A stretch of 64,000 bases of DNA, from sequence record NC_041919.1; one strand, written 5' to 3'. Origin of the DNA: Escherichia phage HP3. The notes under the pieces were generated by a model. The model made no database searches and was not told the DNA's origin. It worked only from the letters and a program-made list of their open reading frames with translations. The position numbers were made by a program, and so were the translations under genes. The number at the start of each line of letters is the position of its first letter. Positions within the stretch are counted from its first letter, which is position 1. Positions 22,940-54,009 of this stretch are shown one piece after another.

Positions 22940-22968
22940 TTTACTTTTAGATAGGGTAGTGATACTAT
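22940..22968 (+). promoter_or_regulatory. Early promoter embedded in a stem-loop (PeSL-type)
   Basis: -35 tttact, 17 nt spacer, -10 tactat; inverted repeat agatagggta / taccctatct. Confidence 0.6.
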
Positions 22969-22996
22969 TACCCTATCTACTACTGAGGAGAATAAA

Positions 22997-23182
22997 ATGA
23001 AACGTTGTGAATTAATTCGAAATGTTGCTATTGCAATTTCTGCTTCCGCTTTTAGTTTTTCAATGTTTGTTGGATTTATATGTGGATTATTGACTACAGC
23101 AGAAAATGTGTTTTCACTTGTAGTAGCATTTTTAATTGGTTTAATTGCTATTGTTATGGATAAAATTTCTAAAGGTGAATAA
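22997..23182 (+). CDS. Small hydrophobic membrane protein
   Basis: 61 aa, mostly hydrophobic (VAIAISASAFSFSMFVGFICGLL...); SD gaggag upstream. Confidence 0.4.
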   Translation: MKRCELIRNVAIAISASAFSFSMFVGFICGLLTTAENVFSLVVAFLIGLIAIVMDKISKGE

Positions 23183-28093: not shown

Positions 28094-28116
28094 AGGGGCT
28101 TCGGGCCCCTATTACT
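28094..28116 (+). terminator. GC hairpin after the coiled-coil gene
   Basis: aggggcttcgggcccct hairpin; poor T-run. Confidence 0.35.
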
Positions 28117-28130
28117 TGGAGTAAATAGGA

Positions 28131-28739
28131 ATGAAAATGCAAAGTGATTTCAATTCAATGTTTGAAGAGTTTCAAAGACAGGTTGATGTTCCAGACCAAT
28201 TACTAAATGCTCTTAAACGCATGGCAGAAGGACGTAATTACTATTGGGGGTCTTCATATGAAACTGATGAAAGCCTTTCCGGAAGATTTTCTAGAGGTAA
28301 AAAGTCTTTAATACGTCCTGGAATACTCATTAACAGTATTGAATCAATTCATTCATTGACGTGTGATTTTGATGTTGAATTTACTGATTTCATTTCTCCT
28401 GAATGGACGGTTTGTTATTTAAACGACGATTTTGATTATCTCGGTGTTTATAGTTTAAGTGACGCATGGTTTAAACGTAATTTACAAAAGTCAAATTTAT
28501 TTTATATTGATACTACTGTAAAATTTCAGGGCAAGAAATATTTCTTTACTCTTATAGTTGATTCTGAAACGAAGCATGAAAATAAACGTATTCTTAGTAA
28601 AAAGAATATCTTAACTATTGTTGATGATCTTTTTGATAAATTTGTAGAAAATCCCAATTTTGAAAGTGATTTATTACTAGAAAAATTTGTTAAGGAATGT
28701 AGAGAATATGTCAAAGCCATCACTATACCTTCCAAGTAA
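28131..28739 (+). CDS. Hypothetical protein, first member of the junction-motif series
   Basis: 202 aa; C-terminal region contains EKFVKECREY; overlaps the next gene start. Confidence 0.5.
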   Translation: MKMQSDFNSMFEEFQRQVDVPDQLLNALKRMAEGRNYYWGSSYETDESLSGRFSRGKKSLIRPGILINSIESIHSLTCDFDVEFTDFISPEWTVCYLNDDFDYLGVYSLSDAWFKRNLQKSNLFYIDTTVKFQGKKYFFTLIVDSETKHENKRILSKKNILTIVDDLFDKFVENPNFESDLLLEKFVKECREYVKAITIPSK

Positions 28740-29100
28740 ACCGTTGAAGTATGAATTAAAGCGTCAGATAATTTCTACTGATGTGTTAATAGGTCCTGTT
28801 ATACTCATATCATTTGTAATTCTATTGATTATTGGAGGTGTTTTAGATGTTATGACTGATATTGATTCTGGCGAAATACTTGTGTTAATGCTAATTCTTC
28901 CATTAATAGTTCCACTTTTATTAGTACCCGTAAATTGGGTAGGATACTGGTATCAAGGAAGGCATTATCGTAAACGCGTACGTGATTGGAAAGCACAGTG
29001 TAAAAAGATTAAAAAGGAACATCAGCTTAAACTTGCTGCGTATGAATTTGATGAAATTATGAAATTTGTTAAGGAATCACGATGCAAAAGCCAAAACTAA
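28708..29100 (+). CDS. Membrane protein with C-terminal FVKESRCK motif
   Basis: 130 aa; two hydrophobic segments; start from ATG with SD aggaa. Confidence 0.5.
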   Translation: MSKPSLYLPSKPLKYELKRQIISTDVLIGPVILISFVILLIIGGVLDVMTDIDSGEILVLMLILPLIVPLLLVPVNWVGYWYQGRHYRKRVRDWKAQCKKIKKEHQLKLAAYEFDEIMKFVKESRCKSQN

Positions 29101-29444
29101 ATAAAGTCAAATATTCGTTTTCTGAGTCATTTTTAATTTTTGCTGTGGCGTTGGCTGCAGCTCTTGCAGGTAGTCTTTTTGGATTGTTAATTGACTGTCT
29201 TATTTTAAACATCGACGGCACAGTAAATATAACAGAAGTTTGGAGTGAGCTTTGTTATACTAAAATTATTTCATTGTTTTCATTCTTTGGTATCATTTTA
29301 TATTTTCATTATGATAATTTTAAAATAAATTGGCAAAGAAAAAAAGATTACAAAATACAATTAAAAGAATATAATAGCTACATGTCTTATATTGAAAATG
29401 AGTCAATGAAAGAGTTTGTGAGTGATTGTAGGAAAATTAAATGA
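29082..29444 (+). CDS. Membrane protein with C-terminal FVSDCRKIK motif
   Basis: 120 aa; two hydrophobic helices; start embedded in the upstream gene end. Confidence 0.5.
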   Translation: MQKPKLNKVKYSFSESFLIFAVALAAALAGSLFGLLIDCLILNIDGTVNITEVWSELCYTKIISLFSFFGIILYFHYDNFKINWQRKKDYKIQLKEYNSYMSYIENESMKEFVSDCRKIK

Positions 29445-29929
29445 TTTTAAAAACTCGCTGGTATGATTTAGATGATGGGGATGATGGCATTTCAGTTGAT
29501 AGAGTTGACTGGAATGGTTGTTCCGAAGATATGAAAAATTTGTTGATTAGGGAGTTTAGAATGGGATATCAAGCAGCTAAGCCATTTACTGTAACAGATG
29601 ATAAGTTCGTATGTATTCAAAACGGTCGCGCTAAGTTAACGAATGCTGATTGGTTCACAGATAAGAAGGTTCTTCTGTGGTATATCATTAGTCTTCCTAT
29701 ATCATCGTTCGTATTTTACTTTTTTATAAAAAATCCAATGGACAGAATAGGAGATTGGGTTCTTTTAACTATACTTGTTAATATTTTTACAGCAGCAGTA
29801 TTATCAGGAATATGGCGTATGTTCATTGAAATGCCATGGCGTTTACGCAGACAACAAAAGATTTTTGATGAAAAGAAATATGCTCAAAATTTAAATAACT
29901 TTATCACTGAATGCAGGAAATTAAAATGA
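29441..29929 (+). CDS. Membrane protein with C-terminal FITECRKLK motif
   Basis: 162 aa; two hydrophobic helices in the C-terminal half. Confidence 0.5.
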   Translation: MILKTRWYDLDDGDDGISVDRVDWNGCSEDMKNLLIREFRMGYQAAKPFTVTDDKFVCIQNGRAKLTNADWFTDKKVLLWYIISLPISSFVFYFFIKNPMDRIGDWVLLTILVNIFTAAVLSGIWRMFIEMPWRLRRQQKIFDEKKYAQNLNNFITECRKLK

Positions 29930-30366
29930 AAACATTATCAGCTGGTATTATCTTCATGACAGAAGATAAAGATTTATTTATGGGTCGGGTTACTGGTTCT
30001 CGTAAGCCTGGAATGATGGCACATCGCTGGGATATTCCAAAGGGACGTGTAGAAAGTTCTGATTTGAATGCACTGGAAGCTGCAAAAAGAGAATGCTTAG
30101 AAGAGACCGGTTTTAGCAATTATAATCCAGACCTTCTAGAAGACCTAGGTGTATTTAAATATTCTAGTAATAAAGACTTACAGTTATTTTATTATACGAT
30201 TCCAGTAGAGCATGAGATGTTTAGAAATTGCCATTGCGAGTCTTATTTTGAAAATAAAGATGGCGTTATGATTCCAGAGATGGATGCTTTTGCTCTTATT
30301 CCTCGTACTCAGTGGCAATATGTGATGGGTCCTTCACTTTACCGAATAATGAACAGCCTCTTTTAA
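29926..30366 (+). CDS. nudE: Nudix hydrolase NudE
   Basis: Nudix box GRVESSDLNALEAAKRECLEETGF; start at 29926 preferred because of SD aggaaa; the ATG at 29911 would give 151 aa. Confidence 0.75.
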   Translation: MKTLSAGIIFMTEDKDLFMGRVTGSRKPGMMAHRWDIPKGRVESSDLNALEAAKRECLEETGFSNYNPDLLEDLGVFKYSSNKDLQLFYYTIPVEHEMFRNCHCESYFENKDGVMIPEMDAFALIPRTQWQYVMGPSLYRIMNSLF

Positions 30367-30897
<531 letters not shown>

Positions 30898-37720: not shown

Positions 37721-37749
37721 TTTACTTTCCATTTGAGCTGTGATACTAT
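37721..37749 (+). promoter_or_regulatory. Early promoter
   Basis: -35 tttact, 17 nt spacer, -10 tactat, conserved leader acaactatc. Confidence 0.55.
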
Positions 37750-37777
37750 ACAACTATCGGATAAAGAGGAGAACATC

Positions 37778-37966
37778 ATGAAAATTGAAGCACTTAATCA
37801 AGAAGGAAATATCTACGTCATCATTAATGGTGATTTTTTCGTCGACATGGATGAAGTTACTAGTGAAGAACTTGTAGAACTTCTTAAGAAACGTTATGAT
37901 ATGTGTGATGAAGCTGCAACTCATATGGCGTGTGCAATATTCTCTCTTTCATATGTGGTGGAATAA
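37778..37966 (+). CDS. Hypothetical small acidic protein
   Basis: 62 aa from ATG after SD aagaggag. Confidence 0.4.
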
Positions 37967-41370: not shown

Positions 41371-42340
41371 AATGAAAACTGTAACTATCAATAAGGGTAT
41401 CTACTTCGGTAAAGAAATCTCTGGAACTTTTGAGCTCTTAGGTGAATGGTTCCCAGATAATGCTCCGGTAGATGCACAAGGAGATGGTAAAGTTTTTGTT
41501 GAAATTGACGGTAAGCGTCGCGGTGTTTGGGTTTACAAATCAGACATTTCATATGATGGTGTAAAAGTTGAAGAAGTTAAAGAATCGTATGAAGATATGA
41601 AAACCCGCATTAATAAAAGATTTAATGTTATGGGAATGATGACGAATGGTATTATTAACGGAAACATTCGTTCATTAATTATCTCTGGTGCGGCGGGTAT
41701 TGGTAAAACGTATTCTTTAGATAAAGCTTTAAATAAAGCAAATGATATTGGATACATTGAATATAAAAGCATTAATGGTAAAATCTCTGGTATTGGTCTT
41801 TATGAGCAGCTTTGGAATAATCGTGAAGAGAATTCTGTACTTTTGATTGATGATGTGGATGTTTTCTCTGATATGGACATTCTTAATCTTCTGAAAGCTG
41901 CTCTGGACACCGGAGAGACCCGCAAAGTCTGCTGGAGCACTGCATCTTCTTACTTAGAAGAAAAAGGCATTGAGCGTGAGTTTGAATTTAAAGGAACGAT
42001 TGTTTTTATCACAAACGTTGACATTGACCGCGAATTAGACCGTGGTACTAAACTTGCTCCACATTTACAAGCATTAGTTTCCCGCTCGGTTTATTTAGAT
42101 TTGGGTGTTCACACTAATGAAGAAATTATGGTCAGGGTTGAAGATGTTATTCTTTCAACTGACATGATGCAAAAACGCGGTCTTTCTGATGAAGAAACTT
42201 ATAAAGCATTATCATGGATGAAAGTCAATGTTAATCGTTTACGCAATGTTTCACTGCGTACTGCACTTTATCTTGCTGACTTTATTATGACCGACAAAAA
42301 CGGTTGGGAAGAAATCGCTGAGGTTACTCTTCTGAAATAA
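41371..42340 (+). CDS. AAA+/P-loop ATPase
   Basis: 323 aa from ATG after SD ggagaa; Walker A GAAGIGKT, Walker B LLIDDVD, sensor-like FITN. Confidence 0.55.
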
Positions 42341-42747: not shown

Positions 42748-42776
42748 TTTACAAGACTGTTCCTCTGTGGTACTAT
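42748..42776 (+). promoter_or_regulatory. Early promoter
   Basis: -35 tttaca, 17 nt spacer, -10 tactat, leader acaactatcaact. Confidence 0.55.
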
Positions 42777-42804
42777 ACAACTATCAACTACGGAGGAACA
42801 CAAA

Positions 42805-43332
42805 ATGAACGCTAAAGATATTTTCAACCTGGTAAATTACAACGATGGTAAATTTAAATCTGAAGCACAAAGCAAGTTCTTTAATGACATCTCAATCGGA
42901 GGTGAAATCACGGTTGACGGAGGACAAATTTACAAATCTCGTTGGAATTGGATCGTTATTATCGATGAGATTGGTATTGTAGAAATTTACAAGAATACGA
43001 ATAAAAATCGTACATTACACTGGTCTCGTGATACTAACGAACAGTACAAAAAGGATAAAGCATCTAAATTATCTCGTGTAACTCAAGAAGATATTGAGTT
43101 CATCAAGAAAGATATTTTGATGTATGATAACTTAATTGCTGAAGAGCAAGCTGTTATTGATAAATTTGATGAGATTAAAGCTTCTCGTGAAATTCCTGAT
43201 TTTATGAAAGAATCAGTAAATGAACGATACACTCTCATTTCAGAGCGTATTGAAACTTACAAAAAGCAAAGAGCTGAACGCCAAAATACTCTTCGGAAGT
43301 TTGAAGAACGGTTAAAGACGGTACTCGCATAA
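42805..43332 (+). CDS. Hypothetical protein with C-terminal coiled coil
   Basis: 175 aa. Confidence 0.45.
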   Translation: MNAKDIFNLVNYNDGKFKSEAQSKFFNDISIGGEITVDGGQIYKSRWNWIVIIDEIGIVEIYKNTNKNRTLHWSRDTNEQYKKDKASKLSRVTQEDIEFIKKDILMYDNLIAEEQAVIDKFDEIKASREIPDFMKESVNERYTLISERIETYKKQRAERQNTLRKFEERLKTVLA

Positions 43333-45721: not shown

Positions 45722-45750
45722 TTTACTTTGCCACAAGGATGTGGTATAAT
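45722..45750 (+). promoter_or_regulatory. Early promoter
   Basis: -35 tttact, 17 nt spacer, extended -10 tggtataat. Confidence 0.55.
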
Positions 45751-45778
45751 GTTCTTACTTTCTACTGAGGAGATTAAT

Positions 45779-46780
45779 ATGACTCGTAACGAATATATCA
45801 AATCATTCAATAGCGTTATTGATGATAAAGTTAAACCTGTGTTTAGTCAGAATAGTGTTATTTCCATTATCAATCAATGGCTCAATAATATTGATGCAAG
45901 TATTGTTTCTTCAAGCAAATTTATTCATGAAGTTCATAAAATTTCTAGTCGCGAATATAAAGATGATATTAAGGAAACTTTTAAAGGTTCTCGTCTTCTT
46001 TCATATTTAGTTAATCAAGATATTCTTGGTAAATTTGGGAAAGAAATTAAACGAACTAAAGATGTAGTAGGATACAGTTGGTTCGGTGATGTTAATTCTT
46101 ATCATCTTAATAATAAAGAAGACCCTGAGAATATTTTTACTCGTCGTTGGATTAGTAATTTTAGACTTTTCAAGAAGCAAATTCTAAAATCAGCTTCTAA
46201 ATTATGCTATGGTGATTATCGTCAAATCCATCCTTGGGCTTCTGATATGATTATCATAAAAGAATATGAGCTTGATAAAAATAAAGCAGCTATTTTTGTG
46301 AATTATGAATTTTTTACACCAGAAGCTAATCAAAAGAACATTAATAAATTTTTCTCAATTGCTAGCGATATAACTCGTCAGTTAGAGACCGCATTACTTT
46401 GTATGGAAACAGTAGAAAATATTCATACTTATCCTTTTAAGAATATATGCGGTTGGGAAGGATATAAAATTGTAGTTAGTCTCCGTGAAGTAAAGTGTGC
46501 GTACTCACCGACTGATAAAGAAATTTACCAACAAAAATGTGATGAAATTGTGAATACTCCTAAAGAAGAAACTACCCTTGAGGAACTAATGGAATGTCTT
46601 GACGATTCGCCTGAACCAGTAGAAATTCGTCCAGAAGTTATTGCACTAGAAAAAGCTTATAAAGAAGTTCTAGAAATTTCTAATAAAGCGCAGAAAGAAT
46701 ATGAGCAGGCTAAAAAGATTTGGGAAGAATCCGTTAATCGTCTTGATCGTCTTGAACAAGCTTTACAGTTAATTAAGTAA
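45779..46780 (+). CDS. Paralog family member C
   Basis: 333 aa from ATG after SD gaggag; FKKQILKSASKL motif; C-terminal coiled coil. Confidence 0.5.
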   Translation: MTRNEYIKSFNSVIDDKVKPVFSQNSVISIINQWLNNIDASIVSSSKFIHEVHKISSREYKDDIKETFKGSRLLSYLVNQDILGKFGKEIKRTKDVVGYSWFGDVNSYHLNNKEDPENIFTRRWISNFRLFKKQILKSASKLCYGDYRQIHPWASDMIIIKEYELDKNKAAIFVNYEFFTPEANQKNINKFFSIASDITRQLETALLCMETVENIHTYPFKNICGWEGYKIVVSLREVKCAYSPTDKEIYQQKCDEIVNTPKEETTLEELMECLDDSPEPVEIRPEVIALEKAYKEVLEISNKAQKEYEQAKKIWEESVNRLDRLEQALQLIK

Positions 46781-53714: not shown

Positions 53715-54009
53715 GATTGAAATCTATGGCATCCCCGAAGAAGTAGGTCGTTGTCCTGGATGTCAATCAGTTACAAAACTTCTAAAGGAGCTCAATGCTC
53801 CTTTTACTTTCTATAAAGTTCTTACAAATAATGGTAAGATTGAGTATGATCGTCCACTGATTGTATCTCTTGCTAAACGTGCTGGATTCACATCTCTTAA
53901 CATTCGTTATCCAGTCATTTTCATTAATGATTCTAGACAAAAGAACATTAAACACTTCAAAGAAACTCTCATTTCACTTGGATATGATAGAGATATCATA
54001 GAAGATTAA
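53686..54009 (+). CDS. Thioredoxin-fold redoxin (NrdH/glutaredoxin-like) with probable GTG start
   Basis: CPGC motif in KIEIYGIPEEVGRCPGCQ; no in-frame ATG near the N-terminus; GTG at 53686 with SD aagga 10 nt upstream. Confidence 0.4.
   Translation: MEQNSNLKNKIEIYGIPEEVGRCPGCQSVTKLLKELNAPFTFYKVLTNNGKIEYDRPLIVSLAKRAGFTSLNIRYPVIFINDSRQKNIKHFKETLISLGYDRDIIED

Follow-up and report, generated by a model that had tools for sequence, protein, structure and literature searches.

Overlapping stop and start codons of the ATGA type and translationally coupled cistrons are common in T4 and in bacterial operons, and the loss of T4 DNA between short direct repeats is familiar from the classical studies of rII deletions. 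For T4-type phages, promoter-early stem-loop (PeSL) cassettes have been described (Arbiol et al. 2010, PMC2839356; Comeau et al. 2014, PMC4122927), and the modular shuffling that PeSLs mediate is the closest described phenomenon to the one analyzed here. The subject of this analysis is a recurrent gene junction in 64,000 nucleotides (nt) of Escherichia phage HP3 (NC_041919.1), a stretch that we refer to at its full length as the window. The junction is formed by the 3′ ends of e.5, e.4, e.3 and e.2, which follow one another among the early genes of a T4-type phage; each runs into the next gene and the last into nudE, and we number the four gene ends J1 to J4 in that order. Probably, the full account is that the four proteins share a conserved C-terminal peptide whose codons also hold the start signals of the next gene. 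Overall this is a mostly ordinary arrangement, in which three ordinary things are combined: tandem paralogues whose tail is conserved, cistrons that overlap, and the deletion of DNA that lies between short direct repeats.

Like PeSLs, the junctions are short repeats at gene boundaries in a plastic, ORFan-rich early region of a T4-type genome, and recombination between neighboring copies gives rise to gene-sized insertions or deletions (indels) between close relatives, in this case of e.2, which lies between J3 and J4. PeSLs, however, are non-coding and combine a promoter with a terminator, whereas the junctions consist of coding sequence, a Shine-Dalgarno (SD) sequence and an ATG, are conserved as peptide, and show no excess of promoters, no stable hairpin and no intergenic space. 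As in translationally coupled, overlapping cistrons, the downstream SD lies inside the upstream open reading frame (ORF), with overlaps of 4, 19 or 32 nt; the mechanism is ordinary, and what sets the locus apart is that the same peptide-coding sequence hosts a ribosome-binding site four times running. The e.4 and e.3 proteins (PHROG 2604 and PHROG 2330) resemble other tandem paralogues of small phage membrane proteins in being adjacent, collinear hairpins of two transmembrane (TM) segments; their N-termini are related, and both carry a basic patch next to the membrane and share the C-terminal motif, but this motif also ends the soluble e.5 protein and the longer, two-domain e.2 protein. As with the short-repeat deletions of T4, DNA is lost exactly between repeats of 9–10 nt and one hybrid copy is left, yet in the present case the repeat itself functions as a gene end and a gene start, the neighbors remain intact and overlapping, and the loss is found in 57 natural records.

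The motif F-[VI]-x-[ED]-[CS]-R ends all four proteins, 3–11 residues before the stop. Six-frame translation of the window contains five matches to it against 0.31 in mononucleotide shuffles, an expectation that overstates the significance, as the pattern was defined post hoc from the data. Four of the five are the C-termini of e.5, e.4, e.3 and e.2; the fifth, FINDSR at 53920, lies inside nrdH (T4 position 41894), 23 residues ahead of its stop, and was taken as chance. In about 148 kb of T4, counting ORFs that have 40 codons or more, the motif is present only in e.5, e.4, e.3, e.2 and nrdH, and as a C-terminus it is restricted to e.5–e.2 both in the window and in this part of T4. A profile built from e.3, e.4 and the e.2 tail returned nine matches from 1.84 billion representative proteins, all of them T-even e.2, e.3 or e.4 proteins or fragments apart from one spurious repeat protein. 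When a degenerate DNA pattern of the short-form junction was run over IMG/VR, for which we estimate about 23 random matches, genuine ORF ends were found only in T-even e.2 and e.3, and the other matches were chance or a repeated ribosome-binding region 5′ of a ParA-like gene. In the ParA-like case, a ribosome-binding region resembling ...GAGGAATGTCGTAAATGA, which reads MEECRK before a stop, stands directly upstream of the gene (MTRQATTYVIGNFKGGVGKTKT...) in unrelated viral IMG/VR contigs, mostly of about 50 kb (L022, L024-L028, L036, L038-L040, L042, L043, L048, L051, L058, L060, L063, L065, L067); the upstream ORF has at most about 34 codons, and we regard the resemblance as coincidental.

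A sequence-only reading of the window had pointed to four gene ends with a common C-terminal motif, encoded by roughly 25 nt that also supply the next gene with its SD and ATG. The four ends are present at the coordinates of J1–J4 (Table 1), and at every one of them some 25–30 nt encode both the upstream C-terminus and the downstream SD and ATG. That reading had extended the motif by a Lys or Cys after the Arg, which holds for e.4, e.3 and e.2 but not for e.5, where the residue is Glu. At each junction the SD is found inside the upstream ORF at a functional spacing, 6–11 nt from the ATG, and the upstream stop overlaps or follows the next start. The e.5 stop lies 32 nt beyond the e.4 ATG, e.4 and e.3 overlap by 19 nt (with the preceding Lys, the motif codons of J2 read K-F-V-K-E-S-R), and the overlaps at J3 and J4 are 4 nt each. 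In the short form of the tail, ...CRK followed by the stop, the SD falls on the x-E codons (AAG-GAA or GAG-GAA); in the long form of Tequatrovirus, ...CRK[IL]K followed by the stop, it falls on the R-K codons (AGG-AAA), and x-E is there S-D or T-E. Because the block from e.5 to nudE, its last gene, has zero intergenic space, the SD and ATG are written into the motif codons. Given the overlaps and the SD spacing, translational coupling is plausible, and the layout would most likely yield coupled, roughly equimolar translation.

Elements other than these start signals were sought at the junctions. Folds of the four 71-nt junction regions have z-scores of −0.8 to +1.4, no better than shuffles, and Rfam at E ≤ 1 returned one spurious miRNA match elsewhere only, on which grounds an RNA element at the junctions was rejected. 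Promoter-like matches between 27300 and 30500 number 19, compared with 15.4 ± 4.4 in shuffles, and none is at a junction, which leaves the repeats without the strong sigma-70-like early promoter of a PeSL. A promoter/terminator cassette at the junctions was likewise considered and rejected, the sole good hairpin in the region being that at 28094–28110.

Alignment of the junction DNA upholds the similarity claimed by the sequence-only reading within two pairs of junctions, and not across all four. J3 and J4, the left and right direct repeats around e.2, are imperfect repeats of about 30 nt that are identical at 24/34 positions when aligned on the ATG, which places them in the top 0.125% of the 4005 pairs of SD-plus-ATG sites in the window. 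J1 and J2 have the exact 16-mer AAATTTGTTAAGGAAT in common, an identity that is 16/16 in Tequatrovirus and about 10/16 in Mosigvirus. J2 compared with J3 or J4 gives 16/34, which is background level, so at the DNA level the four junctions fall into two pairs, and the peptide is all that links them. Four other gene starts on the plus strand (22967–23000, 37748–37781, 42775–42808 and 45749–45782) have about 30 nt upstream in common, ATACAACTATC..ACTAC(T/G)GAGGAG.A.A.AATGA; with up to 25/34 identity, pairs of these are the most similar among the 4005, and their upstream frames run to just 10–35 codons. They look like repeated cassettes of non-coding 5′ leader and ribosome-binding site, possibly PeSL-related.

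Comparison with other genera separates the peptide from the DNA. Mosigvirus e.5, at 46% identity, ends in ...EQFIMECREYVKANPIHAK with the motif FIMECR and is followed by e.4, which in turn ends in ...EFVKEIRCKSLNS with the motif FVKEIRC and is followed by e.3; Mosigvirus e.3 ends in ...ENFIKECRK and then, by an ATGA overlap, gives way to an unrelated gene of 101 residues. In Gaprivervirus and Dhakavirus, e.2 is 32% identical, ends in NSFI[EK]ECRK and precedes a gene of 78 residues, not nudE. The gene pairings at motif junctions are diverse (e.3 with e.2, with nudE or with an RB69ORF139c-like gene; e.2 with nudE or with the 78-residue ORF): e.3 or e.2 is followed by varying genes. Across these genomes the codons of the motif vary, with AGA, CGA, AGG or CGT for Arg, TTT or TTC for Phe, TGT or TGC for Cys, and GTT, GTG, ATT or ATC for Val/Ile, and the SD shifts between the x-E and R-K codons with the peptide unchanged. 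Synonymous codons drift while the peptide is kept, and therefore selection acts on the peptide. On this comparative evidence, the motif belongs to the upstream protein irrespective of the gene that follows, and selection is shown to act mainly on the protein rather than on a free-standing DNA element. What had been taken for an autonomous junction element is instead a conserved C-terminal peptide of the upstream protein, subject to synonymous change and independent of the next gene.

Within each family the tails are invariant, and it is the TM segments and loops that vary, with indels (27 cluster representatives for e.4). The variable parts correspond to 28790–28940 in e.4, 29130–29310 in e.3 and 29670–29825 in e.2, and four-residue indels are found in e.3 (RSNV) and e.4 (SFVI). 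Variable TM and periplasmic loops are compatible with diversifying selection on a membrane-embedded or periplasmic face.

Relationships among the proteins were examined by profile alignment. Pairwise BLASTP and low-diversity profiles gave hints only, and the homology of e.4 and e.3 emerged once Mosigvirus members had been added, when hhalign returned a probability of 79.6% (E 1.5e-5) over 106 collinear columns. The e.3 protein also matches the e.4 family phrog_2604 (E 1.1e-3), with residues 9–118 on profile positions 13–126 of 130. Common to e.4 and e.3 are their N-termini (MSKPSL and MQKPKL), two TM segments, [VI]NW, [RK]D[WY]K[AI]Q and the motif, and at the level of these alignments the two are shown to be full-length tandem paralogues. 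Local hhalign of e.3 with e.2, and of e.5 with e.3 or e.2, aligns the last 10–14 columns only (E 2e-5 to 9e-4), and a global alignment of e.3 with the C-terminal part of e.2 has a probability of 18%. T4 Imm-type superinfection-immunity protein was considered as a relative and rejected, as hidden Markov models (HMMs) of e.4, e.3 and e.2 run against six-frame ORFs from 1–99 kb of T4, which include imm, gave no cross-match below E 0.03.

As the sequence-only reading had it, the last three proteins are of the two-helix membrane type: e.4, e.3 and e.2 each have two hydrophobic segments (Kyte-Doolittle, mean of at least 1.6 in a 19-residue window). All three have acidic loops and basic N-termini and tails, an N-in/C-in distribution of charge. 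In e.2, the hairpin follows an acidic N-terminal domain of about 75 residues and precedes the tail, while e.5 is soluble, with a maximum hydropathy of 0.87. An AlphaFold2 model of e.3 from a mixed alignment is a hairpin of helix 13–44 and one continuous helix 50–119, with a predicted local distance difference test (pLDDT) of 80–89 in the tail; a single-sequence structure prediction of e.5, at pLDDT 38, was unusable. From the charge distribution, the tails of e.4, e.3 and e.2 are predicted to continue from the second TM helix and to be cytoplasmic. In e.5 the motif sits in the last predicted helix. The Phe (i), Val/Ile (i+1) and Cys/Ser/Ile (i+4) positions fall on one face of a helix, which, together with the replaceable Cys of e.4, suggests a surface for packing or docking rather than Cys chemistry.

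The stretch between J3 and J4 is present in some phages and absent in others. In 57 of about 504 Tequatrovirus records (an E-value-limited search), including T2, RB32, RB33, PP01, PST and Ozark, e.2 is absent and e.3 is contiguous with nudE; the numbers of Tequatrovirus records with e.5 (501) and with e.2 (446) agree with this figure. The GenBank phage collection was the basis of these counts, as an e.5 search of IMG/VR gave only 4 loci. In a ZN18-like IMG/VR contig (L013), e.2 is gone and e.3 ends in EFVIDCRKLK, overlapping the nudE start. The hybrid junction, GATTG[CT]AGGAAATTAAAATGAAAAC, is found in this contig (as GATTGC-), T2 and RB32; its left part comes from J3 and its right part (AGGAAATTAAAATGAAAAC) from J4, with the crossover within TG[CT]AGGAAA, and in RB32, which retains the TGT of J3, the crossover is confined to AGGAAA, the SD itself. 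Alleles without e.2 are found on several flanking haplotypes and form no clade: the e.3 of T2 is 3 nt away from the e.2-containing window and 11–13 nt from other e.2-less alleles, and RB32 is 4 nt away from an e.2-containing contig. The event has either recurred or spread by recombination. Deletion is favored over insertion because e.2 and nudE are linked in other genera and because a deletion accounts most simply for the hybrid tail.

In this respect the sequence-only reading, which saw in the junctions a source of microhomology for gene shuffling, is supported at J3/J4 by the 57 records and finds no counterpart at J1/J2, where the predicted deletion of e.4 was seen in none of about 500 matching Tequatrovirus records of the ‘phages’ collection. 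The only other natural rearrangement observed also speaks against a privileged role of the junctions. In Escherichia phage vB_EcoM-UFV05 (L007, 2414–2734), protein P0143 is a natural in-frame e.4::e.2 fusion that joins e.4 residues 1–31 to e.2 residues ~88–162, at the cost of the remaining e.4, all of e.3 and the N-terminal domain of e.2. Its breakpoint lies outside the junctions, in the first TM helix, where the two genes share a short stretch coding for P-V-T as TM1 begins (CCTGTGACA-like microhomology). As this deletion is off-junction, any repeat of 9–10 nt can serve, and a junction is special only in that recombination there leaves both neighbors intact and still overlapping. In the T4 reference (NC_000866, 67652–67960), e.2 is frameshifted and annotated as 102 residues ending in FFIKIQWTE, and in T4T it is split into e.2a and e.2b, with the break at an A run; the counterpart of this break in the window is the A-run ATAAAAAATCC at about 29727–29737, where e.2 is intact.

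Taken as a mechanism, F-[VI]-x-[ED]-[C/S/I]-R is encoded near the stop of e.5, e.4, e.3 and e.2, and at least the e.4/e.3 pair arose by tandem duplication. The preceding 3′ end and ribosome-binding site may well have been part of the duplicated unit, because the similarity of J1 and J2 begins about 25 nt 5′ of the ATG and continues into the N-termini, which are homologous. The e.2 and e.5 proteins would be either paralogues that have diverged past detection or recipients of a tail acquired by recombination at a junction, and e.5 may be the donor or the recipient of its tail. Recombination in the TG[CT]AGGAAA core of J3/J4 would remove e.2 exactly, or could re-insert it; removal leaves e.3 with a hybrid tail, CRKLK, and with its overlap into the nudE start retained. 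The motif itself may provide all four proteins with a surface for helix packing or docking.

Besides the post hoc definition of the pattern, several points weigh against this account. For the tails of e.2 and e.5, homology to those of e.3 and e.4 is confined to 10–14 residues, the family alignments are low in diversity (effective number of sequences, Neff, ~1.6–1.9), and narrow per-family HMMs gave no cross-family matches among six-frame ORFs of T4. The Cys position is Ser or Ile in e.4 and so supports no single chemical role for Cys; the suggested function is one that we infer from helix geometry and substitutions. Coupling is read from gene layout, and in the folding analysis no RNA structure sequesters the junction ribosome-binding sites, with none suggesting occlusion. 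As for e.2, mosaic recombination instead of recurrent events could be the source of its scattered distribution, and the direction of the change is deduced from linkage and from the form of the hybrid tail.

Among the other explanations, that AT-rich T4 initiation sequences have converged and merely happen to translate alike, so that the peptide is meaningless, would fit an SD 6–11 nt before the next ATG and within the motif codons at every junction, the existence of unrelated start regions in the window as alike as J3 and J4 (25/34), and the background identity of J2 to J3 or J4. We nevertheless consider it highly improbable, as an SD requires only AGGA or AAGGA and the conserved Phe, Val/Ile, Cys and Arg positions lie outside it. 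The Arg is kept through four codons, among them CGT and CGA, which destroy an AGG-type SD; the SD moves from x-E to R-K while the peptide stays; and about 148 kb of T4 contain no further gene that ends in the motif. The tail might also be a historical by-product, if e.5 and possibly e.2 captured a paralogue’s tail at a duplication or deletion boundary and gene conversion homogenized the copies, in which case it need not function there. We consider such an explanation rather unlikely. It accords with the extension of J1/J2 similarity from about 25 nt 5′ of the ATG into MSKPSL/MQKPKL, by which the preceding 3′ end is included in the unit, with the restriction of e.5 and e.2 matches to the last 10–14 residues, and with the fall of J1/J2 identity from 16/16 in Tequatrovirus to ~10/16 in Mosigvirus, which fits local conversion. 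The e.5 tail, however, is kept between Tequatrovirus and Mosigvirus at 46% protein identity and the e.2 tail at 32% overall identity, so each tail has been subject to long-term purifying selection, whatever its origin.

A further possibility is that the junction is a recombination linker selected as such, the coding counterpart of a PeSL, through which membrane-protein gene cassettes are cut out, perhaps in the form of mini-circles, and traded among T-even phages that infect the same cell. There is precedent in T4-type phages for repeat-mediated modular shuffling and mini-circles (PMC2839356, PMC4122927). Both ends of the e.2 presence/absence polymorphism fall in the repeat, and the polymorphism is widespread on differing haplotypes; the e.3 or e.2 junction is followed by different genes in different genera, and both tails are long-form in Tequatrovirus and short-form elsewhere, which suggests exchange between J3 and J4. 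Against this stand the single junction-pair recombinant, with none for J1/J2 despite their 16-nt identity, and the confinement of the motif to four gene families, the IMG/VR scan having found real ORFs at e.2 and e.3 only. That the amino acids are conserved while synonymous positions drift speaks against selection for DNA identity, and the UFV05 deletion used unrelated microhomology, so any 9–10 nt repeat serves. We judge this explanation unlikely, and we would give similarly little credence to its combination with a docking function, in which the peptide would let the proteins, at the inner membrane, assemble with one another or bind a single target of the host or the phage, while the junction is selected as an in-frame cassette linker. 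A conserved peptide of the upstream proteins with embedded start signals remains the explanation that we prefer.

The window belongs to a Tequatrovirus. Positions 28100–30400 are 100% identical to Escherichia phage HP3.1, whose record (OK275722.1) is labeled as the product of ‘in vitro directed evolution’, and 90–99% identical to about 500 further Tequatrovirus records. From the T4 annotation and the list of ORFs, the gene order matches that of T4, e.5-e.4-e.3-e.2-nudE-e. A hairpin with a tetraloop, GGGGC-UUCG-GCCCC, at 28094–28110 lies between e.6 and e.5 and precedes the gap-free block, and denV follows the lysozyme gene e directly, without the ipIII and ipII found there in T4. Local Pfam and NCBIfam scans of e.5, e.4, e.3 and e.2 gave nothing above noise, their PHROG matches are to families of unknown function only, and Pfam accessions precomputed for all homologues are PF26873 (e.4) and PF26896 (e.2). 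Full-text literature searching with the gene names and T4 returned nothing relevant, a paper comparing PST and T4 leaves e.2, e.3 and nudE unmentioned, and we found no curated family, RNA family or paper describing the motif.

Table 1. Genes and junctions of the e.5–nudE block and its downstream neighbors (positions in the window)
Feature	Position	Strand	Description
e.5 orthologue	28131..28739	+	202 residues, soluble, ends in ...LLLEKFVKECREYVKAITIPSK before the stop; phrog_2607, E 5e-110
J1 (e.5 end)	28683..28710	+	EKFVKECREY...; motif codons 28686-28703; SD AAGGA 28692-28696; e.4 ATG 28708-28710
e.4 orthologue	28708..29100	+	130 residues, two-TM hairpin, basic tail, ends in ...EIMKFVKESRCKSQN before the stop; phrog_2604, E 4e-71
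J2 (e.4 end)	29062..29084	+	KFVKESRCKSQN before the stop; motif codons 29065-29082; SD AAGGA 29071-29075; e.3 ATG 29082-29084
e.3 orthologue	29082..29444	+	120 residues, two-TM hairpin, ends in ...MKEFVSDCRKIK before the stop; phrog_2330, E 1e-58
J3 (e.3 end)	29415..29444	+	EFVSDCRKIK before the stop; motif codons 29415-29432; SD AGGA 29430-29433; e.2 ATG 29441; ATGA overlap
e.2 orthologue	29441..29929	+	Intact, 162 residues, ends in ...NNFITECRKLK before the stop
J4 (e.2 end)	29900..29929	+	NFITECRKLK before the stop; motif codons 29900-29917; SD AGGA 29915-29918; nudE ATG 29926; ATGA overlap
nudE (Nudix hydrolase)	29926..30366	+	146 residues; Pfam NUDIX, E 3.4e-13; T4 annotation
e (lysozyme)	starts 30403		164 residues
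denV	starts 30957		138 residues

For the annotation of T-even genomes, these results mean that e.2 is frameshifted in the T4 reference and that its absence from T2, RB32, PST and other phages is one defined junction event. They also provide a testable handle on four T4 genes of unknown function, e.2–e.5, in the form of a shared tail motif, predicted to be cytoplasmic, in a T-even-restricted family. Should the peptide serve as a docking site and the junction as a linker, the TM segments and periplasmic loops, which vary, would form the side of these proteins that faces the host and evolves, and membrane-protein cassettes would be swapped between co-infecting T-even phages without disturbing the expression of their neighbors, a coding analogue of PeSL mini-circles. 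The e.2 locus is a natural example of a repeat, consisting of a protein C-terminus and the next start site, that is used as a crossover for clean gene removal. It extends the PeSL picture in that any conserved coding junction can remove a gene and leave the flanking genes intact and overlapping, with no regulatory cassette.

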